Below are positions 4,976 through 35,164 of a DNA stretch of 64,000 nt, in pieces. The stretch's first letter is position 1. Each line of letters starts with the position of its first letter. This stretch comes from Ranitomeya imitator (taxonomy: Eukaryota), in assembly GCF_032444005.1 (NCBI RefSeq), contig NC_091284.1:14942001-15006000 (forward strand). Reading direction: 5' to 3'. The notes under the pieces were generated by a model. The model ran no database searches, was not told the DNA's origin, and saw only the letters and a list, made by a program, of their open reading frames with translations. The position numbers and the translations under genes were made by a program.

Positions 4976-6760
4976 GACTTAATCAGTTAGTGCACCATTA
5001 ACAATATAACTCAGGTTGTTCCTGTGCTGTTGGAGCTGCTGTTCCCAATTTTGTGTCCACTGTAGCCAATCAACAGTCCCTGATCTCCTGCAGCTTTAGA
5101 ATATTTCACCAGACCGTTCATTTCTTCTGATAAAATAGTAAAGAGTGCAGTCAGTAAGCAGTCACAGATTGGCTGCAGCAGTCACTTGACACAAAAATGG
5201 GAACAGTGTCGCCCATTTCACTGTATTTGCGGCTCTGCAGGAGGTGAGTGATTGATGAATGATGAAGCTGGTGTTGTCCAGGAATAGACAATTATATGAA
5301 TGGGATTCTGTCGCCCCCAAAACGGAAACTGAACCACTTATACATTCATCTAGAGGCCTCCAGATGAATGTATAAGAATCACACATGTGATAAAGATTTT
5401 TCTTATTTTGTTTTCTGGCTATCCATCTTATTATATACATAAATGAGGGGGCTTCAGGCACCAGGGGGGCACCGCTCCATCACCTCAATTATAATCGTCT
5501 GCCCCTCCGCTGATGACGATTGACAGTGCTCCAAGGTGCACTGCCTATAGTGAACCCTTAGCCCTCCATGTAGGCTCGCACAGCACCGTGGAGAGGTGAC
5601 CACACGTTCTGCAGAAACCGAGTGCACAGGGTGAGGAGCAAGAGCCACGATACTGAGTAGTGGCTAATACATGAGGAGTGCAGACATCTTGAACTGTGTT
5701 CTGCACCAGATTACAGAGGGAGGATTACCGTAACTGTCCTTGGTATAGGAGATGGACCGCTGATATAGAAGATGAGAAGGAGACCACCCTGACAGAAAGT
5801 GTCCCCCTGAAAGTAGGTAGGAGCTGCCTGACATCCAGGTGAGCGGACCTGAGAGAATGTGATATGTCCATAGTTAGGAGACAGGAATCCAGGAGAGTGT
5901 TGCCCTAAGGCAGAGTGCCGGTTGGTGAGGGCTCAAAGGGACTTTCAGGAGCTGCCAGTGGACTAAGTATATCTGAGGGGTGTGAGACCCCCGGGGAGTA
6001 ATGGACCTCACTGTGACCTGTATGGAGAGCTTCAACAGTGTGTGATGGAGGATAGATGGTGGCACGAGCCCAGGCACACCACAGACCATGGAAAAGTGGG
6101 GAATGGCTGCAGAAATGCTTCATGGGTATTGACGTCTGAATTAGTATAAGTACAAGTGGTTACATAGTGGATGCAAATGAAGCCATTTGGAACTGGTCCT
6201 ATCGACCAGCTTCTTAATGGGGATCCAATGCGTGCTCGGTGTACACCGCAGGGACGGACATCCAGTCTGCGTCCTCCTTACTGGTATTTATAAATACATC
6301 TATCACTCCTCTGTGGGTCATTTGCATTTAAGCTGTTCCATCCAGCATGTCCACATGGATATTCTGTCTCTGAACCCTGCTTATGCAGGTACTATACAGA
6401 TGATCAGGTTTTAAATACATCAGATAGGGATTATATACATTAGGTAGGACTGCTCTATATGGGTATACCTTGACAATTGGTGGAGCAAAAAAAACGTATT
6501 AACTAAATACCCTGTTTTTTTCCATCTTTTGACAAGCAGCACTTGCTTATTACTGTGATTTTTTTTTACAACAGAGTATTTTTGACCTCACTGTGCTTTT
6601 TTGTGTCTTCAAGTGTTTTGGTGGTGTGAACAGGTTCCTACAGACTTGTTCAATGTGCAAGTAGCCCATGTGTTTTTGGTATTCATAAATGCTGGAGGCC
6701 GCCGGTTATTTTCCCCTTTTGGCCCATCACATGTATAATGATGATTAGGGGTTCACTTAC

Positions 6761-8864: not shown

Positions 8865-10134
8865 CGGAAAGTAGTAGAAAAAATATCAGTTGGATAATGT
8901 AGTGGGGGAAGGATAGGGAATTTTTAATTTTAAGTATATTACAAAAAGATTAGATTATAGCATTAAATAGATAGAATTTAGGATGAAAACAAAGCTTAGG
9001 TTTGGAGCACCTCTTTAACTAATGCGCACTGAGTGATCTGCCCCATATCATCCAATTTTGTTATACAGTGGGGAGAATACGAATCTGATCCACTGCTAAT
9101 TTTCCCACCTACAGAGAATGGAGAGGTCTATTATTTTTATTGTAGGTACACTTCACCTGTGAGAGACAGAATCTAAAAATAAAATCCAGAATATCACATT
9201 GTAGGATCGTTACATAATTAATTTGCATTTTATTACATGAAATAAGTATTTGATCACCAACCAGTGTGTATTCTGCTCTCACAGACCTGTTAGTTTTTCT
9301 GTAAGAAGCCTCCATTTCTGCACTTGTATTATTTGCACCTTGTGACGGGGTGTACGGCAGAGCAAGTAGGGACAACAGGCCGAGGGATGATTCAACAGAT
9401 TTATTATCAAGAACGCTGGAACAACACATGCAGGTAGATCTACAGAGTCCACAATTAGTCCAATGGAACAGGTTCGGGGGCACCTCCCGATAATCCTTGT
9501 GCCAGGTAACAAAGCAATAGTCCAAGGGATCCCAAATCTCACAAACGACAAGATATGTCCTCAGCTCAAGTCTCGCCCCGTTCGCTTCCACAGTCCTAGA
9601 TGGGCGTGGGGTCTTGCCTCAGCTAAGAATCCTCACTCCTTCTCCTTCAAGGATCAACTCACATCTGATCTCAAAATAAGAATGGATTGTCTGAGCTCCT
9701 GGGATCCGCCCATGAAGGGGAGTAGGGGTCACACCTTCTATTCAATGGTTGGGTCCACCAGAAGATTCTAGACTGGTGGGCTCCACATAGTCTATGTAGT
9801 ATGTACATTTGACTAGCCACCTGCTGTGAGGAAGAATGGCTATTCCTCCACTAGTGATGTTGACAAAGCTTAATTACATTAGAGCTTAGGGCTGCAAGTA
9901 TTGGTGGAAGGAGACATTGTTACAGGTGAACTCCCAGCCAAGAAAATACATAAATTACAGCTAATAGAAACCAGAGAACAGTTACATACATCAAATGGCA
10001 TATTATTTAAATACAGGACAGGGCAAAAGTACATATCACGACAATCCCTTCCCCTCCCAATTTGTGTACGTACCAGGGACCTCTACAGGTCGCTGGTTAA
10101 GTACACACAGGAGGAGCGTAACTTACATGTGGCT

Positions 10135-10605
10135 TCATGCAGCCACAAATTGACATCTTAGCTCTCCCACATCATTGCCCAGGAGAACATCTGCAGGCAG
10201 ACCACCCATCACCCCAACCACACATTGCCTGACCCCAAAACCAAAGTTCAGATCCACAGTGGCTGTGGGAATAGTCCTCCATTGTCCACCAGCCAGTTCA
10301 ATGACAATCCCAGGTCCTCGATGGATTGCCTCAGGCCGAACCACTCGGGGATCAGCCAGTGTGAGGAAAGCCCCTGAGTCACAAAATCCAATAAGTCTCT
10401 GTCCATCCAGCACGACCTCCTGCAAGTGCTTACCTCGATGAGCAGAAGTCGTCATAGCTGCGGGTCGCACACCATAAACTCCTAGTGGTGCAACATGGGT
10501 GGGTGAGGCACTAGGCCAGTCCTCACGTAGTGGTGACACGTCGTCCTCCATGGCACTTGGGTGTACATAATTAATAATATGACTGGGTACAGGATTAATC
10601 CTCAT
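10135..10605 (-). pseudogene. Retropepsin-type aspartic protease, separated from gag by stops/frameshifts
   Basis: LIGFCDSGAFLTL (D-S-G active site) and DVLLGND (ILG.D motif). Confidence 0.8.
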
Positions 10606-10851
10606 TTGAACAGCTGGGCAGGAGGCTTGCAGATGCCCCGGCTGTCCACATCGATAGCATCTCTGCTGGGTCTCACTCCATCCAAGGCGTCCTCTTGGGC
10701 GAGGGGTAAGGGAACCTGGAGGCCGGCTTCCACCTGAAGGTGCTGTAGGGGTTTGAGGACGACTTCTCCATGAGCTGGCTGGGCATGAGGCCTGCAGATG
10801 CCCCAGATGCCCACAACCATAACACTTGCGCTCTGCTACTTCCTCTCCTCG

Positions 10852-12009
10852 TCATATTCCAGAAAACGCAGTAGAAGCAACTGGAGGCACATTTACATGG
10901 GTATCAGCATGAGGTGGTGGCTTAGAGGAACGGGGAACAATGGGGACAGAAGAACAGGGGGCCACCGGTGTTGTGGAGCTGGTAGGCCTCTCTCCATCCT
11001 CCAACAGAACCCTCCACTGAGGCTTGATGATGAGAGCCTCATCAGCTAGAGCTGCAGCTTCCTCCACAGTGGCTGGTCTCCTCTCACGCACCCATTCCCG
11101 GATCTCAGCAGGGCACTTGAAGTAAAACTGCTCTTTTAGGATAACCTGGAGGAAGGTCTCCCAGGTTAAGGCCTCCTCTGCCTCCAGCCAGCGATTACAT
11201 ATTTGTTTGAGTCTGTGGGCATACATCTTGAAAGACACTTCCTCATCACAGGCTAAAGTACGGAACTGAGTCCTGTAAGTGTCTGGGGTAACAGCATAAT
11301 GTTCTAGAATAGTCCGTTTAATCTCCGCATACTCACAGTTCCCCTGAGGGTCCATAGCTCTATAGGCTGTGGCAGCTCCACCCTCTAAGAGCCCCACCAG
11401 ATGTCGGACTCGGTCCCTTTCCGGGACTTCCATTAATCGACACTGATGCTCAAAGTCCTGGAAGAAGCCCTCAATATCGCCTGCAGCCTCATTAAAGGGC
11501 TTGAAGTCTTTGCGGGACACTCTGGGGAGTTCCCTCATGGTGGGTGCTGGGGTTAGAGTCTGTCTGGAGCTTCTAGCTGCTTCCAAAGCGATCTGCCTCT
11601 CCAGCAATGCCATCTCCTGAGCTCTGTCCTCGGCTCTGTGAATGGCCTCCCTCTCCTCGGCTCTGTGAATGGCCTCCCTCTCCCTCTCCTGAGCTCGGTG
11701 AATGGCCTCTTTCTTATAGTCTATGGTGGCCTCTTCTCCCAGCAATGCCAACTCCTCCTCGTACCACACAACCCACTGACTTTTTAGGGTATTTACCTCT
11801 GGCTGCAGTCTTTCCTCCATTTGCTGTGAGGATCCTTCCTCAGCGTCATCTTGCAGGCGAACTCCTTCCAAAGCCTCAATAAGCTGCTCCTTGGAGAGTC
11901 CCTTAAAACGGACTCCTACTTCACGGGCCTTTGATTGTAGGCTCCCCAAAGTCCAGATCTTGTACTCTGCGGTGCTGGTTCCCGATGTTGATGGGCCTTT
12001 GTCCTCCAT
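10852..12009 (-). CDS. Gag with a SCAN-like capsid C-terminal domain
   Basis: Starts MEDKGPSTSG; contains LKEQFYFKCPAEIREWVRERRPATVEEAAALADE, which fits the SCAN consensus LEQF..LP.E...WV....P....A..LA. Confidence 0.8.
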   Translation of the reverse strand: MEDKGPSTSGTSTAEYKIWTLGSLQSKAREVGVRFKGLSKEQLIEALEGVRLQDDAEEGSSQQMEERLQPEVNTLKSQWVVWYEEELALLGEEATIDYKKEAIHRAQEREREAIHRAEEREAIHRAEDRAQEMALLERQIALEAARSSRQTLTPAPTMRELPRVSRKDFKPFNEAAGDIEGFFQDFEHQCRLMEVPERDRVRHLVGLLEGGAATAYRAMDPQGNCEYAEIKRTILEHYAVTPDTYRTQFRTLACDEEVSFKMYAHRLKQICNRWLEAEEALTWETFLQVILKEQFYFKCPAEIREWVRERRPATVEEAAALADEALIIKPQWRVLLEDGERPTSSTTPVAPCSSVPIVPRSSKPPPHADTHVNVPPVASTAFSGI

Positions 12010-14134
12010 TCCTTCTGCTCTGGTCCCACTGCTTGCCACCAGTTTGTGACGGGGTGTACGGCAGAGCAAGTAGGGACAACAGGCCGAGGGATGATTCAAC
12101 AGATTTATTATCAAGAACGCTGGAACAACACATGCAGGTAGATCTACAGAGTCCACAATTAGTCCAATGGAACAGGTTCGGGGGCACCTCCCGATAATCC
12201 TTGTGCCAGGTAACAAAGCAATAGTCCAAGGGATCCCAAATCTCACAAACGACAAGATATGTCCTCAGCTCAAGTCTCGCCCCGTTCGCTTCCACAGTCC
12301 TAGATGGGCGTGGGGTCTTGCCTCAGCTAAGAATCCCCACTCCTTCTCCTTCAAGGATCAACTCACATCTGATCTCAAAATAAGAATGGATTGTCTGAGC
12401 TCCTGGGATCCGCCCATGAAGGGGTAGGGGTTACGCCTTCTATTCAATGGTTGGGTCCACCAGAAGATTCTAGACTGGTGGGCTCCACATAGTCTATGTA
12501 ATATGTACATTTGACTAGCCCCCCTGCTGTGAGGAATAATGGCTATTCCTCCACTAGTGATGTTGACAAAGCTTAATTACATAAGAGCTTAGGGCTGCAA
12601 GTATTGGGGGAAGGAGACATTGTTACAGGTGAACTCCCAGCCAAGAAAATACATAAATTACAGCTAATAGAAACCAGAGAACAGTTACATATATCAAATG
12701 GCATATTATTCAAATACAGGACAGGGCAAAAGTACATATCATGACACACCTGTTTGAACTTGATACCTGTATAAAAGACACCTGTCCATGAGTCGCCCCC
12801 CAGGACAGTGGGGTACTCTGTACAGGGTCCGGTCGCATTTAAAGGGGATGTCACGGTGGCTGCAACCTGGTCCGTGGCCCTGGGCACTCAAATAAAAGGG
12901 AAAAGTCTTTTAAGGGTTTGGTGAATAAAGTTTGTGTTCGTAACGCCACCTGTGGTATTCGGTCAGTGGGGACCAACACTGCTTAGAAGGGTCCTCTGGG
13001 GTGATGTTATGGCAGCTAGATGGTATAACTTCCCACAGGTGAAGTTGGATCCCCAGGGCTCCCAGTGTAGTGAGCAAGGATGGTGGGTTGCCGCTAAATA
13101 AATGGAGGACACAGGGTTGCAGTCTTTACCTGGTTTACTGAAGTTGTAGTCAACCTCAGTCCAGGGTACTGGCAACAGGTGTTGATGGAGTCCATGCAGC
13201 CCGGAAATATGTGGGAATCCCTTTGACAGGCCAGTTTGGGAGGCTTCCACTATGCGCTGGTTTCTGGTCTCTTGCTACCTGTGGTTGTGTGACAAGGTAC
13301 ACTTCTCGCCTGTCCTGGGACAGTACCTGTATGGTAGGCAGCTTGAGCCGTTTAGCTGGGGTCTCTTTATACGGTGACTCCAGGCTCTGGAATGCTGCTG
13401 TACTCCAGGTTTAATGTGGGCAAGTTGCTTTAAACTTTCTGCCCTCCGGTTCTGCTGTGGGACTTGCAGTTGGCCACAACCTCGAGCTCCCGATGCCCGG
13501 TTCTTGCGCTCTAGCTATAAGGAGGCCCTGTCGCAGCCCTCCTTTAGCTCTTAGGTTCCTACATCCTCCCTCACTCTCTGCTTGTCTGCACTAGACTGCC
13601 TGACTCCTCCTCCAGACCAAGATGTAAATTGAGGGAAGTGTAGCACCCCAGGTAGCCGGTTGCTGCAGTGATGTTGCCTTCCCTTCAGGGAGAGTGATGT
13701 CATGCTTGGAGGCAAGGGGGATTCTTTCTATCAGGTAAGGCACTTACATTCAACACATCTGAATCTAGGACAAGAGGGGGAGCTCAGGACCCGGATTCAG
13801 GGGAACTTCCTTAGACTTCATGTGTCCTGGTCTGGAGGAGGAGCCAGTCAGTTAGTAGCGAGTTGTAGAGGAGTGAGAAGAGGAGAACGATGTCTGGAGC
13901 AGACGTAGGGGCCGAGCAGCCACGAGGGGGCTGCTGCCCCTGGAAAGAGTGAGAAGCAGAAGGAGAGTTGAATTGTGAAGGAGCTTAGAGGGAAGAAGCA
14001 CAGTGGAGGAAAGGGCTCAGGAGGGGAACAGCAGAAGGACTCCCTCAGAGCCAGAGCACAGAAGCTGGGTACCGGGAGCCCGAGGTCTTGTTGTTCTCCA
14101 GGACGAGCGACAGAACCAGAGGGCATAGTACTAT

Positions 14135-15343: not shown

Positions 15344-16893
15344 TAACACTATCCTCCTATCTTATTCTATCTTCAGCTTTGATGGCAGTCAAATGTTCAT
15401 TTAACTGCAATCTGCTAATTGTCCCCTGCTGTGGACTGTCCTCCACCTCCTTCATCCTCCCCCTCCCTCTCTCACCTGGCTTCATTTCGTGGACTCTTGA
15501 ATGGTATAAGTTGAATGGAGCTGGTCAGATTTGACTGTAGTCAGATGTGACATCATTTGAAGTGACATCTTTTAAGTGTATCACCAGAAATCGGCCAGAC
15601 GGTAAGGCTCATGTATTCTAATTTTACTTGCTTTTCTTTTCTTCCCTTACTATTTAACCATACTCACATTTGTCCTCACTGTTTTCGCTCCACTATTCCT
15701 CACTCTCCTTCGCTAACCTTTACCCCTGCACCCTCAAACCAAATAACTATCTCCCCCTCTGTCCCAAACCCCACCTCGCCTCACCCACAGACCTGCTTAA
15801 CATACAATATAAGCCTACTGCTCTCTTTAGGGGTATTTAGTCCTCCGGCTGTGACGAGGTGTCTAGGATTTGTTAGGTACACCCCACGGCTACTTCTAGT
15901 TGCGCTGTTAAGATCAGGATTTGCGGTCAGTATAGTTACCACCTACTCCAGTGAAAGTTTTCATGCTCCTCCAAGGTCACCGGATCACAACAGTACAACT
16001 GGCCCATAATGAGTTAAATGCTTCTCAGAAGAAGGGAAGAAAGGTGTTGAGCCATTTTTTTTTCTTCAGTCTGCTTTATTTTCTCTTCCCTCTTTATCTC
16101 TGGGTGGCTGAGGAGCTTTGTGCTAGCATGAATGTTCAGGAAATAGCTTCTCGTGTAGACCAGCTTGCTGCTAGGGTACAGGGTATTTCAGATTATATTG
16201 TTCAGACTCCTGCTTTAGAACCAAAGATTCCTACTCCTGATTTGTTTTTTGGTGACAGGTCCAAATTTTTGAGTTTTAAAAACAACTGTAAACTGTTTTT
16301 TGCTCTTAGACCTTGATCCTACGGTGATTCCATTCAGCAGGTAAAAATCGTCATCTCCCTGCTGCGTGGCGACCTGCAGGATTGGACGTTTTCCCTGGAA
16401 TCTGGGAATCCGGCTTTGCTTAATATAGACTCCTTTTTTCAGGCTTTGGGATTACTATATGATGAACCTAATTCTGTGGATCAAGCTGAGAAGACCTTGT
16501 TGGCCCTGTCTCAGGGTCAAGAGGCGGCAGAATTGTATTGTCAGAAATTCGGAAAATGGTCTGTGCTGACTAAATGGAATAATGATGCTTTGGCGGCAAT
16601 TTTCAGAGAGGGTCTTTCTGAATCCGTTAAAGATGTTATGGTGGGGTTTCCCACGCCTTCCGGTCTGAGTGATTCTATGTCTCTGGCCATTCAGATTGAC
16701 CGGCGCTTGCGGGAGCGCAGAACTGTGCGCGCTGTGATGTTGTCCTCAGAGCAGATTCCTGAGCCAATGCAGTGTGATAGGATTCTGTCTAGAACGGAAC
16801 GACAAGGATTCAGACGTCAGAATGGGTTGTGTTATTATTGTGGCGACGCTTCTCATGTCATTTCAGTCTGCCCTAAGCGGACAAAGAGGATCG

Positions 16894-17683
16894 TGTTGTG
16901 AATTCTGTTGTCAAGCTCCCTCCTGTGGTCGTGAATGGTACTTCGGTGAGTTCTGTCCGTGGGCTCCCTCTGGTGGCTGTCAGTGGAGCTGCTGCTTCTG
17001 AGGTTCCTTACACAGGTGACATGGTTTATCCTTTGGTTGGCTTCTCTATTTAACTCCTCTTAGATCGTTACTCCATGCCAGCTGTCAATGTTTCTGCATT
17101 GGTTCAGTTCGCTCCTGGATCTTTCTGGTGACCTGTCTACTCCAGCAGAAGCTAAGTTCCTGATAATATCTAATTCGTTCATTGTTTTCTTGTCCAGCTG
17201 GATATCATGATTTTGTCTTGCTAGCTGGAAGCTCTGGGATGCAGAGTGGCGTCTCCGCACCGTTAGTCGGTGCGGAGGTCTTTTTTGCACACTCTGCGTG
17301 GTCTTTTGTAGTTTTTTGTGCTGATCGCAAAGCTACCTTTCCTATCCTCTGTCTATTTAGTAAGTCTGGCCTCCCTTTGCTGAAACCTGTTTCATTTCTG
17401 CGTTTGTGACTTTCACCTTTACTCACAGTCAATATATGTGGGGGGCTGCCTTTTCCTTTGGGGAATTTCTCTGAGGCAAGGTAGGCTTTATTTTCTATCT
17501 CTAGGGCTAGCTAGCTCTTAGGCTGTGACGAGGCGCCTAGGGAGCGTCAGGAGCGCTCTATTTCTAGTGTGTGTGATAGGATTAGGGATTGCGGTCAGCA
17601 GAGCTCCCATATCCCAGAGCTTGTCCTGCGTGAGTTTTAACTATCAGGTCATTCCGGGTGCTCCTAACCACCAGGTCATAACA
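16894..17683 (+). mobile_element. Chromovirus solo LTR inserted at the end of gag of element A
   Basis: TGTTGTG...CATAACA; flanking direct repeat GGATCG (16888-16893, 17684-17689); removing it restores the reading [10 protein letters not shown]. Confidence 0.88.
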
Positions 17684-20534
17684 GGATCGCTAGTTCATTT
17701 ACCATCAGTACTGTACAACCTAAATTTCTGTTATCTGTATCCTTGATCTGCTCATTGTCATCATTTTCTGTCATGGCGTTTGTGGATTCAGGCGCCGCCT
17801 TGAACTTAATGGACTTTGACTTTGCCAGGCGTTGTGGTTTTCCCTTGCAGCCTTTGCAGAACCCTATTCCTTTAAGGGGCATTGATGTTACACCTTTGGC
17901 TAAAAATAAGCCCCAGTTTTGGACACAGGTGACCATGCGCATGGCGCCAGCCCATCAGGAAGATTGTCGATTTCTGGTGTTGCATAATTTGCATGATGCT
18001 ATGGTGCTGGGTTTTCCGTGGTTGCAGGTACATAATCCTGTGTTGGATTGGAAGTCCATGTCTGTGACTAGTTGGGGTTGTCAGGGGGTTCATAATGATG
18101 TTCCTTTGATGTCAATCTCCTCTTCTTCCTCTTCTGAAATTCCAGAGTTTTTGTCTGATTTTCAGGATGTATTCGATGAGCCCAAGTCCAGTTTCCTTCC
18201 ACCGCACAGGGACTGCGATTGTGCTATTGACTTGATTCCAGGCTGTAAGTTTCCTAAGGGTCGACTTTTCAACCTGTCTGTGCCTGAACATACCGCCATG
18301 CGGAGCTATATTAAGGAGTCTTTGGAGAAAGGGCATATTCGGCCATCTTCTTCACCGTTGGGAGCGGGGTTCTTTTTTGTTGCTAAAAAAGATGGTTCCT
18401 TGAGACCCTGTATTGATTATCGCCTCTTGAATAAAATCACGGTCAAGTTTCAATACCCTTTACCTTTGCTTACCGATTTGTTTGCTAGGATTAAGGGAGC
18501 TAGTTGGTTTACGAAGATTGACCTTCGGGGTGCATATAATCTTGTTCGTATTAAGCAGGGTGATGAATGGAAAACTGCGTTTAACACGCCCGAAGGCCAT
18601 TTTGAATACCTTGTGATGCCATTCGGGGCTCACTAATGCTCCATCTGTTTTTCAGTCCTTCATGCATGATATCTTCCGGACTTATATTGATAAGTTCTTG
18701 ATTGTATATTTGGACGATATTTTGATTTTTTCCGATGATTGGGAGTCTCATGTGGAACAGGTCAGGATGGTATTTCAGATCCTTCGTGACAATGCCCTGT
18801 TTGTGAAAGGGTCTAAGTGTCTCTTTGGGGTGCAGAAGGTCTCTTTTTTGGGCTTTATTTTTTCTCCCTCTTCTATAGAGATGGATCTGGTTAAGGTTCA
18901 GGCCATTCATGATTGGATTCAGCCCACATCTGTGAAGAGCCTTCAGAAATTTTTGGGTTTTGCAAATTTTTATCGCCGTTTCATTGCTAATATTTCCAGC
19001 GTGGTTAAACCCTTGACCAATTTGATGAAGAAAGGCGCTGATGTGGCGAATTGGTCCTCTGCGGCTGTCTCTGCCTTTCAGGAGCTTAAACGTCGTTTTA
19101 CTTCTGCTCCGGTGTTGCGTCAACCGGATGTTTCTCTTCCGTTTCAGGTTGAGGTTCTGAGATTGGGGCAGGGGCCATTTTGTCTCAGAGGGATCCTGTT
19201 GGTTCCTTAATGAAACCGTGTGCCTTCTTTTCCCGTAAGTTTTCGCCTGCTGAACGCAATTATGATGTCGGCAATCGGGAGTTGTTGGCTATGAAGTGGG
19301 CGTTTGAGGAGTGGCGACATTGGCTTGAGGGAGCTAAGCACCGTATTGTGGTCTTGACTGATCATAAGAATTTGATTTACCTCGAGTCTGCCAAACGGCT
19401 GAATCCTAGACAGGCTCGATGGTCTTTGTTTTTTTCCCGTTTTGATTTTGTGGTCTCGTACCTTCCGGGTTCTAAGAATATTAAGGCTGATGCCCTCTCT
19501 AGGAGTTTTTTGCCTGATTCTCCTGAGGTCTTAGAACCGGTCAGTATTCTGAAAGAAGGGGTGGTCCTTTCTGCCATTTTCCCTGATTTACGACAGGTTC
19601 TTCAGGAATTTTGTTGTGAGTTCTGTTTTTGGGCTCCCTCTGGTGGTTACTGATGGTACTGGGTGACTTGTGTTCTCTGCGGTCTCTGGTGTCCACCTGT
19701 TCCATCAGGTTATGGGAGTTTCCTATTTAACCTGGCTTTTTTGTCATTTCCTCGCCGGCTATCAATGTAATCAGCGTGTCTTTTTACCTCTGCTACCTGC
19801 GTCTGTTATCTTCAGGACAAGCTAAGTTTTGATTTTCCTGTTCCACGTTTTGTTTAATTTTTGTCTTAGTCCAGCTTGCAGATATGTGATTCCTTGCTGC
19901 TGGTTGCTCTAGTGGGCTGAAATTACTCCTCATGTTCCATGAGTTGGCACATGAGTTCAAGTAATTTCAGGATGGTTTTTTGAAGGGTTTTTCGCTGACC
20001 GCGCAGTTCACTTTTGTATCCTCTGCTATCTAGCTTTAGCGGGCCTCATTTTTGCTGATTCTATTTTCATAACTACGTATGTGCTTTCCTCTCATTTCAC
20101 CGTTATTACATGTGGGGGGCTGCTATTTCTGTAGGGTGTTTCTCTGGAGGCAAGTGAGGTCTGTGTTTCTTCTAATAGGGGAAGTTAATCCTTCGGCTGG
20201 CGCGAGACGTCTAGGAATCATCGTAGGCACGTTCCCCGGCTACTGCTAGTTGTGTGTTTAGGTTCAGGATCGCGGTCAGCTCAGGTTCCATCACCCTAGA
20301 GCTTGTTTTGTTTTTGTGCTTGTCCTTTTGTGATCCCCTGCCATTGGGATCATGACAGTATAGCCGGCCAGAAAAAATTGGTCATCGTTTTGGCTGAAGT
20401 AGGAGGAAAAGTAGTCTGAGGAAGTTGTTTTTTTTTTTTTCCCTCCTCAGTGTTTGCTGCCTAGCCTTAATTGCAGCTTGGCTGCTTCTTTCCTCCTCTT
20501 AATCCTTGAATGGCTCTGACCTCAGCTGTTTATC

Positions 20535-22046
20535 ATGGACGTCCAGAGTTTGGCTTCCAGCCTGAATAATCTTGCTGCTAAGGTTCTAAATATACAAGAT
20601 TTTGTTGTACATACTCCTATGTCTGAACCTAGAATTCCTATCCCAGAGTTTTTTTCTGGAGATAGATCTAGTTTTCTGAATTTTAGGAACAATTGCAAGT
20701 TGTTTCTTTCCTTGAAATCTCGCTCCTCTGGAGACCCTGCTCAGCAGGTTAAGATTGTTATATCTTTCCGGCGGGGTGACCCTCAGAATTGGGCATTTGC
20801 ATTGGCACCAGGGGATCCTGCGTTGCTCAATGTGGATGCGTTTTTTCTGGCATTGGGTTTGCTCTATGAGGAACCTAACCTAGAGATTCAGGCTGAAAAA
20901 GCTTTATTGGCTCTCTCTCAGGGGCAAGATGAAGCAGAAATATATTGTCAGAAATTTCGGAAATGGTCGGTGCTTACTCAGTGGAATGAGTGCGCTCTGG
21001 CTGCAAAATTCAGAGATGGCCTTTCTGAGGCCATTAAAGATGTTATGGTGGGGTTCCCGGCGCCTACAGGTCTGAATGAGTCCATGACTATGGCTATTCA
21101 GATTGATCGGCGTTTACGGGAGCGCAAACCTGTGCACCATTTGGCGGTGTCTTCTGAACAGGCACCTGAGATAATGCAATGTGATAGAATTCAGTCCAGA
21201 AGTGAACGGCAAAATTATAGGCGGAAAAATGGATTGTGTTTTTATTGTGGTGATTCAGCTCATGTTATATCAGCATGCTCTAAACGCACAAAAAAGGTTG
21301 ATAAGTCTGTTGCCATTGGTACTTTACAGTCTAAGTTCATTCTGTCTGTGACTCTGATTTGTTCATTATCATCCATTATCGTCGATGCTTATGTGGATTC
21401 AGGCGCTGCCCTGAGTCTTATGGATTGGTCATTTGCCAATCGCTGTGGGTTTAGTCTGGAACCTCTGGAAGTTCCTATTCCTTTGAAAGGAATTGACTCT
21501 ACACCTTTGGCTATGAATAAACCTCAGTACTGGACACAAGTGACCATGCGTATGACTCCCGTTCATCAGGAGGTGATTCGCTTCCTGGTACTGTATAATT
21601 TACATGATGTCTTAGTGCTTGGTCTGCCATGGTTACAAACTCATAACCCAGTCCTGGACTGGAAAACAATGTCTGTGTTAAGCTGGGGATGTCAGGGGGT
21701 TCATGATGATGCATCTCCGATTTCTATCGCTTCATCTACTCCTTCTGAGGTTCCGGTATTTTTGTCTGATTATCGTGAAGTTCTTGAGAAGCCTAAGCTC
21801 AGTTCGCTTCCTCCTCACTGGGATTGCGATTGTGCTATAGATTTGATTCCTGGCAGTAAATTCCCTAAAGGTCGTTTGTTCAATCTGTCAGTGCCAGAGC
21901 ATACTGCTATGCGGAATTATGTTAAGGAGTCCTTGGAAAAGGGACATATCCGTCCATCTTCGTCCCCTTTAGGAGCAGGTGTTTTTTTTCGTGGCCAAAA
22001 AAGATGGTTCCTTGAGGCCTTGCATAGATTATCGTCTTTTGAATAA
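20535..22046 (+). CDS. Gag-protease-RT N-terminus of element C
   Basis: EPRIPIPEFFSGDR capsid motif, CFYCGDSAHVISAC zinc knuckle, VDSGA protease. The frame is lost at ~21985 inside the RT motif [12 protein letters not shown]. Confidence 0.9.
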   Translation: MDVQSLASSLNNLAAKVLNIQDFVVHTPMSEPRIPIPEFFSGDRSSFLNFRNNCKLFLSLKSRSSGDPAQQVKIVISFRRGDPQNWAFALAPGDPALLNVDAFFLALGLLYEEPNLEIQAEKALLALSQGQDEAEIYCQKFRKWSVLTQWNECALAAKFRDGLSEAIKDVMVGFPAPTGLNESMTMAIQIDRRLRERKPVHHLAVSSEQAPEIMQCDRIQSRSERQNYRRKNGLCFYCGDSAHVISACSKRTKKVDKSVAIGTLQSKFILSVTLICSLSSIIVDAYVDSGAALSLMDWSFANRCGFSLEPLEVPIPLKGIDSTPLAMNKPQYWTQVTMRMTPVHQEVIRFLVLYNLHDVLVLGLPWLQTHNPVLDWKTMSVLSWGCQGVHDDASPISIASSTPSEVPVFLSDYREVLEKPKLSSLPPHWDCDCAIDLIPGSKFPKGRLFNLSVPEHTAMRNYVKESLEKGHIRPSSSPLGAGVFFRGQKRWFLEALHRLSSFE

Positions 22047-24639
22047 GATTACAGTCAAATATCAGTATCCTTTGCCATTGTTGACTGATTTGTTCGCTCG
22101 CATTAAGGGGGCTAAATGGTTCACTAAGATTGATCTTCGGGGTGCGTATAATCTTGTGCGGATAAGGCAGGGTGATGAGTGGAAAACCGCATTTAATACG
22201 CCTGAGGGCCATTTCGAGTATTTGGTGATGCCTTTTGGACTTTCTAATGCTCCTTCTGTCTTCCAGTCTTTTATGCACGATATTTTCCGTGAATATCTGG
22301 ATAAATTTATTATCGTGTATTTGGATGATGTTTTGGTTTTTTCTGATGACTGGGAGTCTCATGTTCAGCAGGTCAGGAAGGTGTTTCAGGTCCTGCGGGC
22401 CAATTCCTTGTTTGTAAAAGGCTCAAAGTGTCTCTTTGGAGTCCAGAAGATTTCTTTTTTGGGGTATATTTTTTCCCCTTCTACTATTGAGATGCATCCC
22501 GTCAAGGTTCAGGCTATTTGTGACTGGACGCAGCCTACATCTCTTAAGAGTCTACAGAAGTTCTTGGGCTTTGCTAATTTTTATCGTCGCTTCATAACTA
22601 ATTTTTCTAGTGTTGTTAAGCCTTTGACGGATTTGACTAAGAAGGGTGCTGATGTTACTGATTGGTCTCCTGCGGCTGTGGAGGCCTTTCAGGAACTTAA
22701 GCGCCGGTTTTCTTCTGCTCCTGTGTTGCGTCAGCCAGATACCTCGCTTCCTTTTCAGGTTGAGGTTGATGCTTCCGAGATCGGAGCGGGGGCGGTTTTG
22801 TCACAGAGAAGCTCCGATGGCTCAGTGATGATGCCATGTGCGTTCTTTTCTAGAAAATTTTCGCCCGCTGAACGGAATTATGATGTTGGTAATCGGGAGC
22901 TTTTGGCCATGAAGTGGGCATTTGAGGAGTGGCGTTATTGGCTTGAGGGTGCTAGACATCGTGTGGTGGTCTTGACTGATCACAAAAATCTGATGTACCT
23001 TGAGTCTGCCAAGCGTCTGAATCCTAGACAGGCTCGTTGGTCACTGTTTTTCTCCCATTTCAATTTTGTGGTTTCATACCTGCCAGGTTCAAAGAATGTG
23101 AAGGCGGATGCTCTTTCTAGGAGTTTTGTGCCTGACTCCCCTGGAAATTCTGAGCCCACTGGTATCCTTAGGCATGGGGTGATTTTGTCGGCTGTCTCCC
23201 CAGACTTGCGACGTGCTTTGCAGGAGTTTCAGGCGGATAAACCTGATCGTTGTCCGCCAGAAAGACTGTTTGTTCCGGATAATTGGACCAGTAGAGTCAT
23301 CTCTGAGGTCCATTCTTCTGTGTTGGCAGGTCATCCTGGAATATTTGGTACTAGAGACTTGGTGGCCAGGTCTTTTTGGTGGCCTTCCTTGTCGAGGGAT
23401 GTGCGTTCTTTCGTGCAGTCTTGTGGAGTTTGCGCTCGGGCTAAGCCTTGCTGTTCTCGGGCCAGTGGATTGTTGTCACCTTTGCCTATCCCGAAGAGGC
23501 CTTGGACACACATTTCCATGGACTTTATTTCGGATCTCCCTGTCTCTCAAAAAATGTCCGTCATATGGGTTGTGTGTGACCGCTTTTCTAAGATGGTTCA
23601 TCTGGTACCCTTGCCTAAGTTACCTTCCTCCTCTGAGTTGGTCCCTCTGTTTTTTCAAAACGTGGTCCGTTTGCATGGCATTCCGGAGAACATCGTTTCT
23701 GACAGGGGATCCCAGTTTGTGTCTAGATTTTGGCGGACGTTCTGTGCTAAGATGGGCATTGATTTGTCCTTTTCGTCTGCATTCCATCCCCAGACGAATG
23801 GCCAGACGGAACGAACTAATCAGACTTTAGAAACTTATTTAAGGTGTTTTGTTTCTGCTGATCAAGATGACTGGGTTTCCTTTTTGCCGCTTGCCGAGTT
23901 TGCCCTTAATAATCGGGCTAGTTCTGCTACCTTGGTTTCTCCTTTCTTTTGTAATTCGGGGTTTCATCCTCGTTTTTCCTCTGATCAGGTGGAACCTTCT
24001 GATTGTCCTGGAGTGGACATGGTGGTGGATAGGTTGCATCAGATTTGGAGTCATGTGGTGGACAATTTGAAGTTGTCCCAGGAGAGGGCTCAGCAGTTTG
24101 CTAATCGCCGTCGCCGCGTGGGTCCTCGACTTCTTGTTGGGGACTTGGTGTGGTTGTCTTCTCGTTTTGTTCCTATGAAGGTCTCTTCTCCTAAGTTCAA
24201 GCCTCGGTTCATCGGTCCCTATAGGATCTTGGAAATTCTTAACCCTGTGTCGTTTCGTTTTGATCTCCCGGCATCGTTTGCTATTCATAATGTGTTCCAT
24301 CGGTCGTTGTTGTGGAAGTATGAGGTACCTGTTGTTCCTTCGCTTGAGCCTCCTGCTCCGATGCTGGTGGAGGGTGAATTGGAGTATGTTGTGGAGAAGA
24401 TCTTGGATTCTCGTGTTTCCAGATGGAAACTCCAGTATTTGGTCAAGTGGAAGGGTTATGGTCAGGAGGATAATTCTTGGGTGATTGCCTCTGATGTTCA
24501 TGCTGCCGATTTGGTCCGTGCTTTTCATAGGGCTCATCCTGGTCGCCCTGGTGGTTCTCGTGAGGGTTCGGTGACCCCTCCTCAAGGGGGGGGGTACTGT
24601 TGTGAGTTCTGTTTTTGGGCTCCCTCTGGTGGTTACTGA
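21979..24639 (+). CDS. RT-RNaseH-integrase-chromodomain of element C
   Basis: YLDD RT motif, VDASE RNaseH, H-H/C-C zinc finger, MDF/SDRG/E integrase triad, GPY motif, and chromodomain YVVEKILDSR...YLVKWKGY...SW. Confidence 0.93.
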   Translation: MFFFVAKKDGSLRPCIDYRLLNKITVKYQYPLPLLTDLFARIKGAKWFTKIDLRGAYNLVRIRQGDEWKTAFNTPEGHFEYLVMPFGLSNAPSVFQSFMHDIFREYLDKFIIVYLDDVLVFSDDWESHVQQVRKVFQVLRANSLFVKGSKCLFGVQKISFLGYIFSPSTIEMHPVKVQAICDWTQPTSLKSLQKFLGFANFYRRFITNFSSVVKPLTDLTKKGADVTDWSPAAVEAFQELKRRFSSAPVLRQPDTSLPFQVEVDASEIGAGAVLSQRSSDGSVMMPCAFFSRKFSPAERNYDVGNRELLAMKWAFEEWRYWLEGARHRVVVLTDHKNLMYLESAKRLNPRQARWSLFFSHFNFVVSYLPGSKNVKADALSRSFVPDSPGNSEPTGILRHGVILSAVSPDLRRALQEFQADKPDRCPPERLFVPDNWTSRVISEVHSSVLAGHPGIFGTRDLVARSFWWPSLSRDVRSFVQSCGVCARAKPCCSRASGLLSPLPIPKRPWTHISMDFISDLPVSQKMSVIWVVCDRFSKMVHLVPLPKLPSSSELVPLFFQNVVRLHGIPENIVSDRGSQFVSRFWRTFCAKMGIDLSFSSAFHPQTNGQTERTNQTLETYLRCFVSADQDDWVSFLPLAEFALNNRASSATLVSPFFCNSGFHPRFSSDQVEPSDCPGVDMVVDRLHQIWSHVVDNLKLSQERAQQFANRRRRVGPRLLVGDLVWLSSRFVPMKVSSPKFKPRFIGPYRILEILNPVSFRFDLPASFAIHNVFHRSLLWKYEVPVVPSLEPPAPMLVEGELEYVVEKILDSRVSRWKLQYLVKWKGYGQEDNSWVIASDVHAADLVRAFHRAHPGRPGGSREGSVTPPQGGGYCCEFCFWAPSGGY

Positions 24640-27124
24640 TGGTACTGGGTGACTTGTGTTCTCTGCGGTCTCTGGTGTCCACCTGTTCCATCAGGTTATG
24701 GGAGTTTCCTATTTAACCTGGCTTTTTTGTCATTTCCTCGCCGGCTATCAATGTAATCAGTGTGTCTTTTTACCTCTGCTACCTGCGTCTGTTATCTTCA
24801 GGACAAGCTAAGTTTTGATTTTCCTGTTCCACGTTTTGTTTAATTTTTGTCTTAGTCCAGCTTGCAGATATGTGATTCCTTGCTGCTGGTTGCTCTAGTG
24901 GGCTGAAATTACTCCTCATGTTCCATGAGTTGGCACATGAGTTCAAGTAATTTCAGGATGGTTTTTTGAAGGGTTTTTCGCTGACCGCGCAGTTCACTTT
25001 TGTATCCTCTGCTATCTAGCTTTAGCGGGCCTCATTTTTGCTGATTCTATTTTCATAACTACGTATGTGCTTTCCTCTCATTTCACCGTTATTACATGTG
25101 GGGGGCTGCTATTTCTGTGGGGTGTTTCTCTGGAGGCAAGTGAGGTCTGTGTTTCTTCTAATAGGGGAAATTAATCCTTCGGCTGGCGCGAGACGTCTAG
25201 GAATCATCGTAGGCACGTTCCCCGGCTACTGCTAGTTGTGTGTTTAGGTTCAGGATCGCGGTCAGCTCAGGTTCCATCACCCTAGAGCTTGTTTTGTTTT
25301 TGTGCTTGTCCTTTTGTGATCCCCTGCCATTGGGATCATGACAGAATTTCAGGCTGATAAACCTGACCGCTGTCCTGTGGGGAAACTGTTTGTTCCTGAC
25401 AGATGGACTAGTAGAGTGATTTCTGAGGTTCACTGTTCCGTGTTGGCTGGTCATCCTGGCATTTTTGGTACCAGAGACTTGGTTGGTAGGTCCTTTTGGT
25501 GGCCTTCTTTGTCGCGTGATGTGCGTTCTTTTGTGCAGTCCTGTGGGACTTGTGCGCGGGCCAAGCCTTGTTGTTCCCGTGCTAGTGGGTTGCTTTTGCC
25601 ATTGCCGGTCCCTGAGAGGCCCTGGACGCATATTTCTATGGATTTTATTTCCGATCTTCCGGTTTCCCAGAGGATGTCGGTTATCTGGGTTGTTTGTGAC
25701 CGGTTCTCTAAGATGGTTCATTTGGTGCCTTTGCCTAAATTGCCTTCCTCTTCGGATTTGGTTCCGTTGATTTTTCAGCATGTGGTCCGTTTGCATAGTA
25801 TTCCGGAGAATATTGTGTCCGACAGAGGTTCCCAGTTTGTTTCTAGGTTTTGGCGGGCCTTTTGTGCTAGGCTGGGCATTGATTTGTCTTTTTCTTCTGC
25901 GTTTCATCCTCAGACAAATGGCCAGACCGAGCGAACTAATCAGACTTTGGAGACTTATTTGAGATGCTTTGTGTCTGCTGATCAGGATGATTGGGTGGCC
26001 TTCTTACCATTGGCCGAGTTTGCCCTTAATAATCGGGCTAGTTCTGCTACCTTGGTTTCGCCTTTCTTTTGTAATTTTGGTTTTCATCCTCGTTTTTCTT
26101 CTGGGCAGGTTGAGCCTTCTGACTGTCCTGGTGTGGATTCTGTGGTGGACAGGTTGCAGCAGATTTGGGCTCATGTGGTGGACAATTTGGTGTTGTCTCA
26201 GGAGGAGGCTCAACGTTTTGCTAACCGTCGTCGGTGTGTTGGTTCCCGGCTTCGGGTTGGAGATCTGGTCTGGTTGTCTTCCCGTCATGTTCCTTTGAAG
26301 GTTTCTTCTCCTAAGTTTAAGCCTCGGTTTATTGGTCCTTATAGGATTTCTGAGATTATTAATCCGGTGTCTTTTCGACTGGCGCTTCCGGCCTCTTTTG
26401 CTATCTATAATGTCTTCCATAGATCTTTATTGCGGAAATATGTGGAGCCCGTTGTTCCCTCTGTTGATCCTCCGGCCCCTGTGTTGGTTGATGGGGAGTT
26501 GGAATATGTTGTTGAGAAGATTTTGTATTCCCGTTTTTCGAGGTGGAAGCTTCAGTACCTGGTCAAATGGAAGGGTTATGGCCAGGAGGATAATTCTTGG
26601 GTTTTTGCCTCTGATGTCCATGCTGCTGATTTGGTTCGTGCCTTTCATCTGGCTCATCCTGATCGGCCTGGGGGCTCTGGTGAGGGTTCGGTGACCCCTC
26701 CTCAAGGGGGGGTACTGTTGTGAATTCTGCTTTTGGGCTCCCTCCGGTGGTTGTAGATGGTAATGCAGTTGTCCCTGGGCTGCAGGCTTGGAAAGGTGTA
26801 TCTGCTAATTGCAGTTCTGACTGGGGTATTTAGGTTTGCAGGACTCATTAGTCCTTGCCAGTTGTCTATGTCCCCCCCCTATATCTCAGAACTAATCTCC
26901 CACTATCTTCCCTCACATAATCTTTGATCCTCCCAAGACCTCCTTCTCTCCTCCACACTTATCCGCTCCTCACTCAACCGCCTCCAAGATTTCTCCCGAA
27001 TATCTCCCATCCTCTGGAATTCCATGCCTCACCACGTCCGACTATCCAACACCCTCGGCTCCTTCAGACGGAACCTGAAAAACCCAGCTCTTCAGGAAAG
27101 CCTATAGCCTGCAATAACCATTCT

Positions 27125-27480
27125 ACCGCCTCACCAACCACCCGAGCTGCCGCCTCACCAACCACCCGAGCTGCCGCCTCACCAACCACCCGAGCTGCAG
27201 CCTCACCAACCGCCCGAGCTGCTGCCTCACCTTCCACCTGTGCTGCTGCCTCACCAACCACCCGAGCTGCCACCTCACCAACCACCAGAGCTGCAGCCTC
27301 ACCAACCACCCGAGCTGCCGCCCCACCAACCACCTGAGCTGCCGCCTCACCAATCACCCGAGCTGCTGCCACATCACCAACCACCTGAGCTGCTGCGTCA
27401 CTACCACCAGAGCTGCCACCTCACCAACCACCCAAGCTGCCGCGTCACCACTGCCAGAGCTGCCGCCTCACCACCACCAG
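27125..27480. repeat. 24-bp minisatellite in the L2 3' UTR
   Basis: Unit GCCTCACCAACCACCCGAGCTGCC. Confidence 0.9.
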
Positions 27481-27510
27481 TGCTGCAGAACACCGACCTC
27501 CTGTTTCTTC

Positions 27511-28309
27511 TGTTATGAACTGGTGTTTTAGGAGCAACATGGGCCGAGCTCTGAAGGAGTTGGTACCTGTACTGACCGCAGTCCCTAAGCTCAACACAAC
27601 ACTAGAAGTAGCTGTGGGATGTTCCTGTCACTCCCTAGACACCTCGTCACAGCCTGAGAGCTAACTACCCCTAAAGATAGAAACAGGAAAGCTATCTTGC
27701 CTCAGAGAAAATCCCCAAAGGATAGATAGCCCCCCACAAGTAATGACTGTGAGTGGAGAGAGAAAAGACATACATAGAATGAAACCAGGATGTAGCAAAG
27801 GAGGCCAGTCTAGCTAGATAGATAGGACAGGACAGAATACTGTGCGGTCAGTATTAAAAACTACAAAAATCCACACAGAGTTTACAAAAATCTCCACACC
27901 TGACTAAAGGTGTGGAGGGTAAATCTGCTTCCCAGAGCTTCCAGCTTAACTGAATTAATCCATACTGACAAGCTGGACAAAACATAGAATGCACAGAACG
28001 AATAAGTCCACAACATGTGGACAGAAAAGAGCAAAGCAAGGACTTATCTTTGCTGAACTGGTCAGGAAATCAGGGAAATCCAAGCAGAGATGTGAATCCA
28101 ACCAGGAACCATAGACAAGTGGCACTGGCTGAAGGGAAGAGCCAGGCATAAATAGCCGAGCAGAAAGACAATCAGTGGAAGCAACTGCAGACTGCTAAAT
28201 CCAAGGAGCAGCCATTCCACTTAAAACCACCGGAGGGAGCCCAAGAGCAGAACTCACAAAAGTGCCACTTACAACCACCAGAGGGAGCCCAAGAGCGGAA
28301 TTCACAACA
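27511..28309 (-). mobile_element. Chromovirus solo LTR in reverse orientation
   Basis: Reverse complement begins TGTTGTGAATTC and ends CATAACA; flanking direct repeat TTCTTC (27505-27510, 28310-28315). Confidence 0.88.
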
Positions 28310-32061: not shown

Positions 32062-34255
32062 TATCTGTTATGGGGGATTGCGGATGACGCTCTGTTATGG
32101 GGGATCTGTGGATGATGCACTGTTATGGGGGATCTGTGGATGATGCACTGTTATGGGGGATCTGTGGATGACGCACTGTTATGGGGGATCTGTGGATGAT
32201 TATTATTATTATTATACATTTTTATAGCGCGCACTGTTATGGGGGATCTGTGGATGATGCGCTGTTATGGGGATCTGTGAATGATGCTCTGTTATGGGGA
32301 TCTGTGGATGAGGCACTGTTATGGGGGATCTGTGGAGGATGCACTGTTATGGGGATCTGTGAATGATGCTCTGTTATGGGGATCTGTGGATGAGGCACTG
32401 TTATGGGGATCTGGGGATGAAGCACTGTTATGGGGGATCTGTGGATGAGGCACTGTTATGGGAGATCTGTGGATGATGCACTGTTATGGGGGATCTGTGG
32501 ATGACGCACTGTTATGGGAGATCTGTGGATGACGCACTGTTATGGGGGATCTGTGGATGACGCACTGTTATGGGGATCTGTGGATGATGCTCTGTTATGG
32601 GGATCTGTGGATGAGGCACTGTTATGGGGGATCTGTGGATGAGGCACTGTTATGGGGATCTGGGGATGATGCACTGTTATGGGGGATCTGTGGATGATGC
32701 ACTGTTATGGGGGATCTGTAGATGATGCCCTGTTATGGGGATCTGTGGATGATGCACTGTTATGTGGGATCTGTGGATGATGCACTGTTATGGGGATCTG
32801 TAGATGATGCACTGTTATGGGGATCTGGGGATGAGGCACTGTTATGGGGATCTGTGAATGATGCTTTGTTATGGGGATCTGTGGATGAGGCACTGTTATG
32901 GGGATCTGGGGATGATGCACTGTTATGGGGGATCTGTGGATGATGCACTGTTATGGGGGATCTGTAGATGATGCCCTGTTATGGGGATCTGTGGATGATG
33001 CCCTGTTATGTGGGATCTGTGGATGATGCACTGTTATGAGGGATCTGTGGATGATGCACTGTTATGTGGGATCTGTGGATGACGCACTGTTATGGGGGTC
33101 TGTGGATGAGGCACTGTTATGGGGATCTGTGGATGAGGCCCTGTTATGGGGATCTGTGGATAAGGCACTGTTATGGGGGATCTGTGGCTGATGCACTGTT
33201 ATGGGGATCTGTGGATAACGCACTGTTATGGGGGATCTGTGGATGACGCACTGTTATGGAGATCTGTGGATGATACTCTGTTATGGGGGATCTGTGGATG
33301 ATGCCCTGTTATGGGGGATCTGTGGATGACACACTGTTATGGAGATCTGTGGATGATACTCTGTTATGTGGGATCTGTGGATGATGCACTGTTATGGGGA
33401 TCTGTAGATGATGCACTGTTATGGGGGTCTGTGGATGAGGCACTGTTATGGGGATCTGTAGATGATGCACTGTTATGGGGGATCTGTGGATGAGGCCCTG
33501 TTATGGGGATCTGTGGATAAGGCACTGTCATGGGGATCTGTGGCTGATGCACTGTTATGGGGATCTGTGGATAACGCACTGTTATGGGGGATCTGCGGAT
33601 GACGCACTGTTATGGAGATCTGTGGATGACGCACTGTTAAGGGGGATCTGTGGGTAATGCACTGCTATAGGGATCTGTGGATGATGCTCTGTTATGGGGG
33701 ATCTGTGGATGATGCCCTGTTATGGGGGATCTGTGGATGACACACTGTTATGGGGATCTGTGGATGATGCACTGTTATGTGGGATCTGTGGATGATGCAC
33801 TGTTATGGGGATCTGTAGATGATGCACTGTTATGGGGGTCTGTGGATGAGGCACTGTTATGGGGATCTGTAGATGATGCACTGTTATGGGGGATCTGTGG
33901 ATGATGCACTGTTATGGGGATCTGTGGATGAGGCCCTGTTATGGGGATCTGTGGATAAGGCACTGTCATGGGGATCTGTGGCTGATGCACTGTTATGGGG
34001 ATCTGTGGATAACACCCTGTTATGGGGGATCTGCGGATGACGCACTGTTATGGAGATCTGTGGATGACGCACTGTTAAGGGGGATCTCTGGGTAATGCAC
34101 TGCTATAGGGATCTGTGGATGATGCTCTGTTATGGGGGATCTGTGGATGATGCCCTGTTATGGGGGATCTGTGGATGATGCACTGTTATGGGGATCTGTG
34201 GATGACGGACTTTTAAGGGGGTTCTGCATATGACGCATTGTTATGGGGGCTCAAC
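32062..34255. repeat. 27-28-bp minisatellite, ~80 copies
   Basis: Unit GCACTGTTATGGGG(G)ATCTGTGGATGAT. Confidence 0.95.
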
Positions 34256-35164
34256 GGATGATAATACAGCATTTTATCTTAATTAACCAGACATGTATTT
34301 TCAATAAGCCAGGAGGAATAGACTGTTATCTATATGCTGACTTTTGAATTTATGTGTTTGTTCTTTGTTTGGTTAAGAAAACACAGACTTTTGTTTGTAT
34401 AAGCCAGTAATATTGACTTTAAGTTGACGTTTGTTGTAACATATTGTGCTGTTATCCTTGATGACTAGAGACACAGGGTAATTGAACAATGATGTTTGCT
34501 GATATGTTGATTACACATTGTACAGGCCAGCTAGTTTGTTGACCTACAAACATTGAAGGATAAACTATAAATGCTCAAACAAGGAGTTAATCTTGTCATA
34601 CCTTCCTCTTGACCCCTGGATAATGACTTGAAGGACAACAGTTGTGAACTATATAAGGGAACTATTTCTCCATACAAACAGATTCAGACATCCAAGAGAT
34701 CAAGATAACCAGAGATTCTGTACAAAATCAAAGCCAGAAACACTCCACAAGACAGCAATCAATACATCATGGCTCCATCAAGAGGGACACAGATTTGACA
34801 TTCTGCAGGATGTCAGCTTAGGGGACCATGATCCCGGCTATAAGAATACAGATCTGCTCCATTGATTATCACTGAACCCAAGGATATATTTGGGGTAGTC
34901 ATGATTGGGACCCACTGGTCACCTGAGCCCATGGATACACTTGGTAAAGCCAGCATTGGGACCCCCCTGGAAGGGCCGGCTCCAGGTTTTCGTTGGCCAC
35001 GAGCAAAACAGTTTCTCTGGGCCCCTTTAACACATACCATGATTCATGATGCACAGATATGGCAGAGAAATATAGATATAGTACTATGCCAAAGATTTCA
35101 CTCACTTCTTACATTACATGAGTGATCTATATTGTAAATTCTACAAAAGCTCAGACAGTGGACA

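Follow-up and report, generated by a model that had tools for sequence, protein, structure and literature searches.

The 64,000-nucleotide stretch of the Ranitomeya imitator genome considered here (contig NC_091284.1, positions 14,942,001 to 15,006,000 of the forward strand; hereafter referred to as the window) contains two long terminal repeat (LTR) retrotransposons, element C and element A, the first nested within the second. In both, the primer-binding site (PBS) forms the complement of a nine-nucleotide sequence (9-mer) from the LTR. The evidence from these elements and from their relatives in one assembly of 5.96 Gb suggests, with a probability that we put at about 85%, that these chromoviruses pair the PBS with what is predicted to be the capped 5′ terminus of the RNA they produce, likely use this end as a primer and likely copy it into the PBS of their progeny. 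Taken separately, self-priming appears highly probable on the basis of genomic DNA. Self-priming itself is already known; what is added here is a copy-level record of the mechanism.

Results

Pairing and covariation of the LTR 9-mer and the PBS

Both C and A belong to the Ty3/gypsy chromoviruses: the domain order protease, reverse transcriptase (RT), RNase H and integrase, a C-terminal chromodomain, LTRs of the form TG...CA and a polypurine tract (PPT) are all present, and the best match in the PDB was Ty3 Gag-Pol (E value 4e-131). In each element, the LTR end ACA is followed by a two-nucleotide spacer, GT, and then by the PBS. A preliminary description of the window had reported that neither PBS was of the tRNA type beginning with TGG, and that each was the exact reverse complement of a 9-mer 30 nucleotides after a TATA-like motif (TATTTAA in element C, TATTTAG in element A). 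Inspection of the strings and coordinates confirmed these statements, as well as the similar spacing of the 9-mers of two solo LTRs (30 and 31 nucleotides), for both of which matching PBS types are present elsewhere in the genome (Table 1). The assignment of the second pair to one element had a gap: the 5′ and 3′ LTR remnants of element A in the window do not overlap, the PBS following the first and the 9-mer lying in the second. Intact copies of family A close this gap, as both remnants and also the gag have 94-97% identity to one set of intact loci, in which the same pair is seen.

We investigated this pairing across the genome by taking the LTR 9-mer at TATA+30, blind to the PBS. The junction pattern consisting of the LTR end, GT, any six nucleotides and GGC had 43,129 genome matches, versus 830 for the control. 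A first set of 123 gag-linked junctions yielded 105 copies (one place being counted twice) after the removal of 18 without a TATA motif. Pairing at all nine positions was found in 85 of these 105 copies at offset +30, and in zero or one copy at each of the other offsets from +24 to +36. When the PBSs were shuffled among copies 10,000 times, the mean number of perfect pairings was 15.7 and the maximum was 30. The offset profile and the shuffles together exclude pairing by chance. In a de-duplicated, enlarged set of 133 copies (18 without a TATA motif having been dropped), 104 paired at 9/9 positions and 123 at 8/9 or more. With selection on gag only, perfect pairing was observed in 19 of 25 copies of family C (26 of 30 loci readable) and in 38 of 52 copies of family A (61 of 70 loci readable), 49 of the latter pairing at 8/9 positions or more.

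Twelve paired primer/PBS types were identified, none of which has a PBS beginning with TGG, and the genome-wide covariation proposed as a check in the preliminary description was thus borne out. At least 13 paired steps separate these types, seven of them being transversion pairs without a G-U intermediate, and LTRs of differing paired types were 99.0, 97.6, 95.6 and 95.2% alike. Numbering the predicted RNA from R1 to R9 over the 9-mer, the edges of the pairing were sharp, with R10 paired in 5/105 copies and R0 in 17/105. A primer of 10-11 nucleotides as a rule was rejected (R0 pairs in 17/105 copies and R-1 in 28/105). An AC spacer follows the PPT, 13 of 14 cases ending in GGGGGTAC, and mirrors the GT before the PBS; this symmetry suggests that the 3′ end of the primer is set independently of pairing. 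One copy, L171 (G000:C1:17936900-17943050), had a 5′ LTR primer of one type and a PBS and 3′ LTR of another, and is likely a conversion product or a recombinant. The possibility that the PBS tracks U3 rather than gag in recombinants was also considered; the trees were suggestive for one copy (L053) but unclear, and were not used.

A mutation hot spot at the predicted 3′ end of the primer

The last position of the 9-mer, R9, was a mutation hot spot. In family C, R9 was not T in 140 LTRs, R10 was not C in 22 and R13 was not T in six, these counts being numbers of variant LTRs rather than fractions of an LTR total. Of 100 R9 variants listed, 62 lay in 27 clusters of several LTRs (≤15 kb), and no R10 or R13 variants lay so close together. 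In the 20 R9 clusters retrieved, the allele was common to both LTRs, as they had been chosen, and the first PBS base (PBS1) was still A in all 17 readable cases. All 13 copies with an altered PBS1 (10 places) had a normal R9. In a tree of 74 copies, the 18 carrying R9 variants required 16-17 parsimony changes, versus 17.3-17.5 for shuffled labels, which argues for independent origins; the variants comprised three alleles on two backgrounds and were scattered over the tree. Their presence in both LTRs argues that the change was made during reverse transcription. Family A had 114 R9 variants, without a matched control, and a hand count gave 13 same-allele neighbour pairs per 100 rows.

The R9 hot spot fits a cut after nucleotide 9 and the addition of an untemplated base to minus strong-stop DNA. 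An altered R9 was never matched in the PBS; a primer mismatched at its 3′ end would presumably be a dead end. Three loci (L170, L183 and L272) had small deletions, duplications or insertions in or just after the 9-mer, shared by both LTRs in L170; these small rearrangements fit a mis-registered first strand transfer.

The bases behind the PBS

The position immediately behind the PBS (position 10) was C in 105/105 copies of the first set, even though R0, the would-be template, was T in 47, C in 41 and G in 17. Among copies picked by gag, C was found at this position in 26/26 for family C and 58/61 for family A. Positions 11 and 12 were counted from the junction, because the columns of the multiple alignment misplaced them through an A-run. 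In family C, they had 12 different dinucleotides in 100 rows, with AA accounting for only 45 (hand count). Each required 25-27 parsimony changes, compared with 33-34 for shuffled data and a maximum of eight for any column of the two tree alignments.

This pattern suggests that, in plus strong-stop DNA, the PBS is followed by a C templated by the cap and, at the very end, by one or two untemplated bases. We moderately favour the reading of the cap as a template base; RTs are described as able to read the cap as G (PMC4038843; published sources are cited here and below from excerpts).

How the pairing is maintained

The third PBS base (PBS3), which pairs with R7, provided a test case of rare variation. 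All 18 copies in the genome with a rare PBS3 were retrieved and 17 were readable, six of which had the matching substitution at R7. Two of these paired copies were checked over their full length, and the R7 change was present in both of their LTRs. LTR pairs are only about 0.5% apart, so chance would seldom produce the matching substitution. With the variants resembling decay of a cytosine-guanine dinucleotide (CpG) left aside, half of the cases (6/12) were paired, and a direct link between primer and PBS is therefore indicated. One of the paired types appeared twice, on different branches of the tree. Of 10 ATTG variants considered as candidate paired changes, five were set aside, being better read as CpG decay of the ATCG type.

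During plus-strand synthesis, RT probably writes the primer sequence into the PBS of the following generation. The covariation would then come from templated copying and not from double mutation, and a single mutation could give a paired change. The compensated double mutation envisaged in the preliminary description is thus likely not the explanation. The title of a paper seen in a reference list reportedly states that the self primer is not removed.

The most serious competitor accepts self-priming but supposes that two mutations arise independently and that selection maintains the pairing, the primer being removed uncopied and the C behind the PBS retained for RNA structure. We consider it unlikely. 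Double mutants can arise among tens of thousands of copies, and an invariant base may simply be under selection, but transversion pairs account for seven of the 13 minimal steps, and even LTRs that are 97.6-99.0% alike are set apart by paired changes. Selection would be expected to leave G-U wobble intermediates, and four unpaired PBS3 copies are indeed of this kind; however, in a poorly resolved tree, wobble copies did not group with the paired ones, and half of the non-CpG rare variants were already paired. Selection also leaves unexplained the hot spot beginning right after position 10, and Tf1 is reported, in the excerpts available, to copy its PBS into complementary DNA (cDNA).

That the hot spots might be artefacts of assembly or alignment beside the A-run, or might descend from a few mutated master copies, is very improbable. 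Positions 11-12 do adjoin an A-run of variable length, and the data come from a single assembly, contigs from public runs having left the spot unresolved. Nevertheless, substitutions to all four bases were read from the junction without alignment, tandem duplicates agreed with each other (L041/L042, L197/L198 and L203-L206), and the R9 variants were common to two LTRs 5 kb apart, with the alleles, backgrounds and scatter described above. Least probable of all is priming by a host tRNA, a tRNA half or another small RNA, with the LTR match as a structural helix or by-product: half-tRNA priming does occur in some copia lineages, according to an excerpt of PMC6317226, but none of the 12 types begins with TGG, the PBS keeps to its own LTR even in variants with only three copies, which would require a new host RNA each time, and the R9 hot spot is located where a self-cut predicts.

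Several observations nonetheless weigh against self-priming with copying of the primer as set out here. For many copies, the search pattern itself required GGC at PBS positions 7-9. In family A, one discordant-allele neighbour pair at R9 was found in 100 rows. Position 10 was not C in 3/61 family A copies, one of which reflects a misread junction and another a deletion. The hot spot at positions 11-12 is strong in family C alone: in family A, positions 11 (A39/C18/G3/T1) and 13 vary and position 12 is fixed. No variation at positions 11-12 was found in small samples of two other types (7/7 CA and 6/6 AA), in which a preference for A addition on an A-rich template could mask the hot spot. Eleven of the 17 PBS3 variants were unpaired: five resemble CpG decay and six are unexplained singletons, including the four G-U wobbles, which are also expected from the selection route. 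Folding of the natural region gave a primer:PBS helix probability of at least 0.74 in 6/11 types, but of 0.28 or less in 5/11. A second duplex, between R13-15 and the ACA at the LTR end, can form at these positions in 103, 99 and 93 of 104 copies, but covariation cannot test it because both partners are invariant. A third duplex, involving the leader, was not found, pairing being no better than in shuffles in 10/11 types. The RNA of Tf1 forms a three-duplex ‘pretzel’ (bioRxiv 2022.12.06.519325), and this structure is only partly seen in the frog elements.

Proposed mechanism

Transcription would begin at the G of GCC (19754 in element C), as the TATA motif at -30 and the hot spot after position 10 indirectly suggest, and nucleotides 1-9 of the RNA would anneal to the PBS and be separated by a cut after nucleotide 9, made by RNase H if the process is as in Tf1. 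Minus strong-stop DNA would terminate opposite nucleotide 10, where an untemplated base could be added. With the first strand transfer, this base would occasionally become fixed at R9 in the two LTRs of the progeny; the R9-altered copies would prime poorly and leave no matched lineage. Plus strong-stop DNA would copy the uncut primer and then the cap G, giving the PBS plus C, and would then gain one or two untemplated bases, which the second transfer would turn into the variable positions 11-12. As the primer would serve as template for the top strand of the PBS, a tolerated internal change in the primer would be paired one cycle later. Finally, a two-base trimming of the cDNA ends, ACTG...CAGT, would precede integration, which would generate a 6-bp duplication. 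Such a duplication was observed in 14/14 measurable cases among 40 stretches (loci L164-L232) and in three cases in the window.

Features of the window

The coordinates of the features of elements C and A and of the solo LTRs are given in Table 1.

Table 1. Features of the nested elements and solo LTRs in the window
Feature	Position	Strand	Remarks
Element C, whole	19612-25343	+	LTRs 99.5% identical; nested within element A
Element C, 5′ LTR (TGTTG...CATGACA)	19612..20357	+	99.5% identity to 3′ LTR of C
Element C, TATA-like TATTTAA	19724..19730	+	30 nucleotides upstream of predicted RNA start
Element C, predicted 9-nucleotide self-primer R1-R9, GCCGGCTAT	19754..19762	+	R9 (19762) is the mutation hot spot of family C
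Element C, GT spacer between LTR end and PBS	20358..20359	+	Mirror of AC between PPT and 3′ LTR
Element C, PBS, ATAGCCGGC	20360..20368	+	
Element C, bases behind PBS	20369..20371	+	Near-invariant C (putative cap copy), then two hypervariable bases (putative untemplated additions)
Element C, gag-pol (gag, protease, RT, RNase H, integrase, SH3_Tf2-1, chromodomain)	20535..24636	+	Frame change near 22,000 breaks the window copy
Element C, PPT, T and AC spacer	24584..24597	+	
Element C, 3′ LTR	24598..25343	+	Holds second copy of the 9-mer, 24740-24748
Element C, 6-bp target duplication GAATTT	19606-19611 and 25344-25349		
Element A, 5′ LTR remnant	15824..15992	+	U5 end only
Element A, PBS ACAACTGGC and next C	15995..16004	+	PBS proper 15995-16003
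Element A, broken gag-pol	16128..26715	+	Split by solo LTR and element C; terminates in integrase with chromodomain
Element A, 3′ LTR remnant	26716..26871	+	TATTTAG at 26827; 9-mer GCCAGTTGT at 26857-26865
Solo LTR inside element A	16894..17683	+	9-mer GCCAGCTGT at TATA+30 (17077); 6-bp target duplication 16888-16893/17684-17689
Solo LTR downstream of element A	27511..28309	-	9-mer GCCACTTGT at TATA+31 (28123); 6-bp target duplication

A long single gag-pol frame (at least 1,300 codons) was present in 37 of 150 listed copies (hand count). In many family C copies, the first frame stops after about 497-508 codons, a recurrent break at one place (compare the frame change near 22,000 in the window), and in others it reaches about 1,376 codons. 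A CCHC knuckle was read in the translation of the element A gag. The gag weakly matched PEG10 (E value 0.0019) and DUF4939 (E value 0.038, below the cut-off). Elsewhere in the genome, two tandem arrays (G000:C1:757837604-757867380 and C1:468230779-468245765) consist of four to six elements spaced about 4,960-4,990 bp apart, with LTRs apparently common to neighbours. These arrays recall the integrase-independent tandem insertions of Tf1 (PMC11042837), or could reflect unequal crossing-over.

The window also contains repeats of other kinds. At 9340-12746, minus-strand frames, one with a CCHC-like motif, are flanked by direct repeats (about 705 bp long and 98% alike), forming a short LTR-like element of another kind. 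Three related RT-like frames (41454-43904, 48647-50289 and 53159-54714), 94-98% alike and one of them inverted, presumably belong to a CR1-type long interspersed nuclear element. Several tandem arrays, with a 20-nucleotide unit at two places, and a 1-kb inverted repeat whose arms are 97% alike account for 3722-4987, 27123-27486, 32065-34262, 36979-38976, 59183-60707 and 60895-63509.

Discussion

The frog elements resemble Tf1/Tf2 of Schizosaccharomyces pombe in their chromodomain integrase, the apparent lack of a tRNA-type PBS, a PBS complementary to the (here predicted) RNA 5′ end, a single gag-pol frame and tandem elements sharing one LTR. Unlike Tf1/Tf2, the frog family pairs 9 rather than 11 nucleotides, separates its LTR from the PBS by GT, with AC as the mirror image beside the PPT, makes a 6-bp target duplication, has no detected third ‘pretzel’ duplex and has 12 primer versions in one genome. 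The target-site duplication of Tf1 is 5 bp. A duplication of 5 bp is likewise given in print, in the excerpt available, for SM-Tcn1. Tf1 self-priming has been shown by experiment, with an 11-nucleotide primer cut by RNase H (PMC7175516); its cDNA is reported to retain the PBS reverse-transcribed into DNA, and its RT adds untemplated bases to most cDNA 3′ ends (PMC11042837). The frog family would share all three features: the RNase H cut that makes the primer, the copying of the PBS into cDNA and the untemplated 3′ additions. The fission-yeast elements have no CCHC knuckle (bioRxiv 2022.12.06.519325), unlike element A. The frog elements thus appear, from their sequences, to work like Tf1, and their placement in the Tf1/sushi group is suggested by these features, together with the SH3_Tf2-1 domain and the weak gag matches to PEG10 and DUF4939, not by a tree.

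Like vertebrate Sushi elements, the frog family has a self-complementary PBS, and its LTR ends, TGTTG...CATRACA, are close to the Sushi att motif (PMC3601003). Unlike sushi-type elements of vertebrates, it has a single frame; a -1 frameshift is said to predominate outside fission yeasts (bioRxiv 2022.12.06.519325). Plant Tcn1 (gypsy) and TAR (copia) similarly have a PBS complementary to their own LTR, deduced from sequence, in other hosts and lineages, and the excerpt consulted describes no junction hot spots or cap signature for them (PMC6317226). Self-priming has been implicated from fungi to vertebrates, with citation of Butler et al. 2001 (PMC4600332, PMC6317226, bioRxiv 2022.12.06.519325); in these excerpts, it is experimental in fission yeast and only deduced for vertebrates. 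The idea of self-priming in vertebrates put forward in the preliminary description is therefore supported, as the best reading of the pairing data, but is not new, having already been proposed in print for Tf1/sushi elements. For self-priming families of vertebrates, a literature search turned up no description of primer/PBS covariation across a genome, of hot spots at the junction or of a base derived from the cap, a weak negative given that most subscription papers lay outside its coverage.

We lean slightly towards the view that this genome preserves a fossil record of reverse transcription by self-priming, resolved to single bases, in which may be read a cut after nucleotide 9, templating by the 7-methylguanosine (m7G) cap each time the cycle runs and the addition of untemplated bases at the first and second strand transfers. 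The primer and its site would form one self-correcting unit, with each subfamily acquiring a private primer after a single mutation. For a vertebrate family, these copies predict to the single base where the RNA starts, where it is cut and where each strong-stop DNA ends, and they predict an additional, cap-derived C. Mapping from DNA only, through variants common to both LTRs and a hot spot after the PBS, should be possible in any large self-priming family, and primer/PBS covariation in self-priming elements need not imply compensatory selection.

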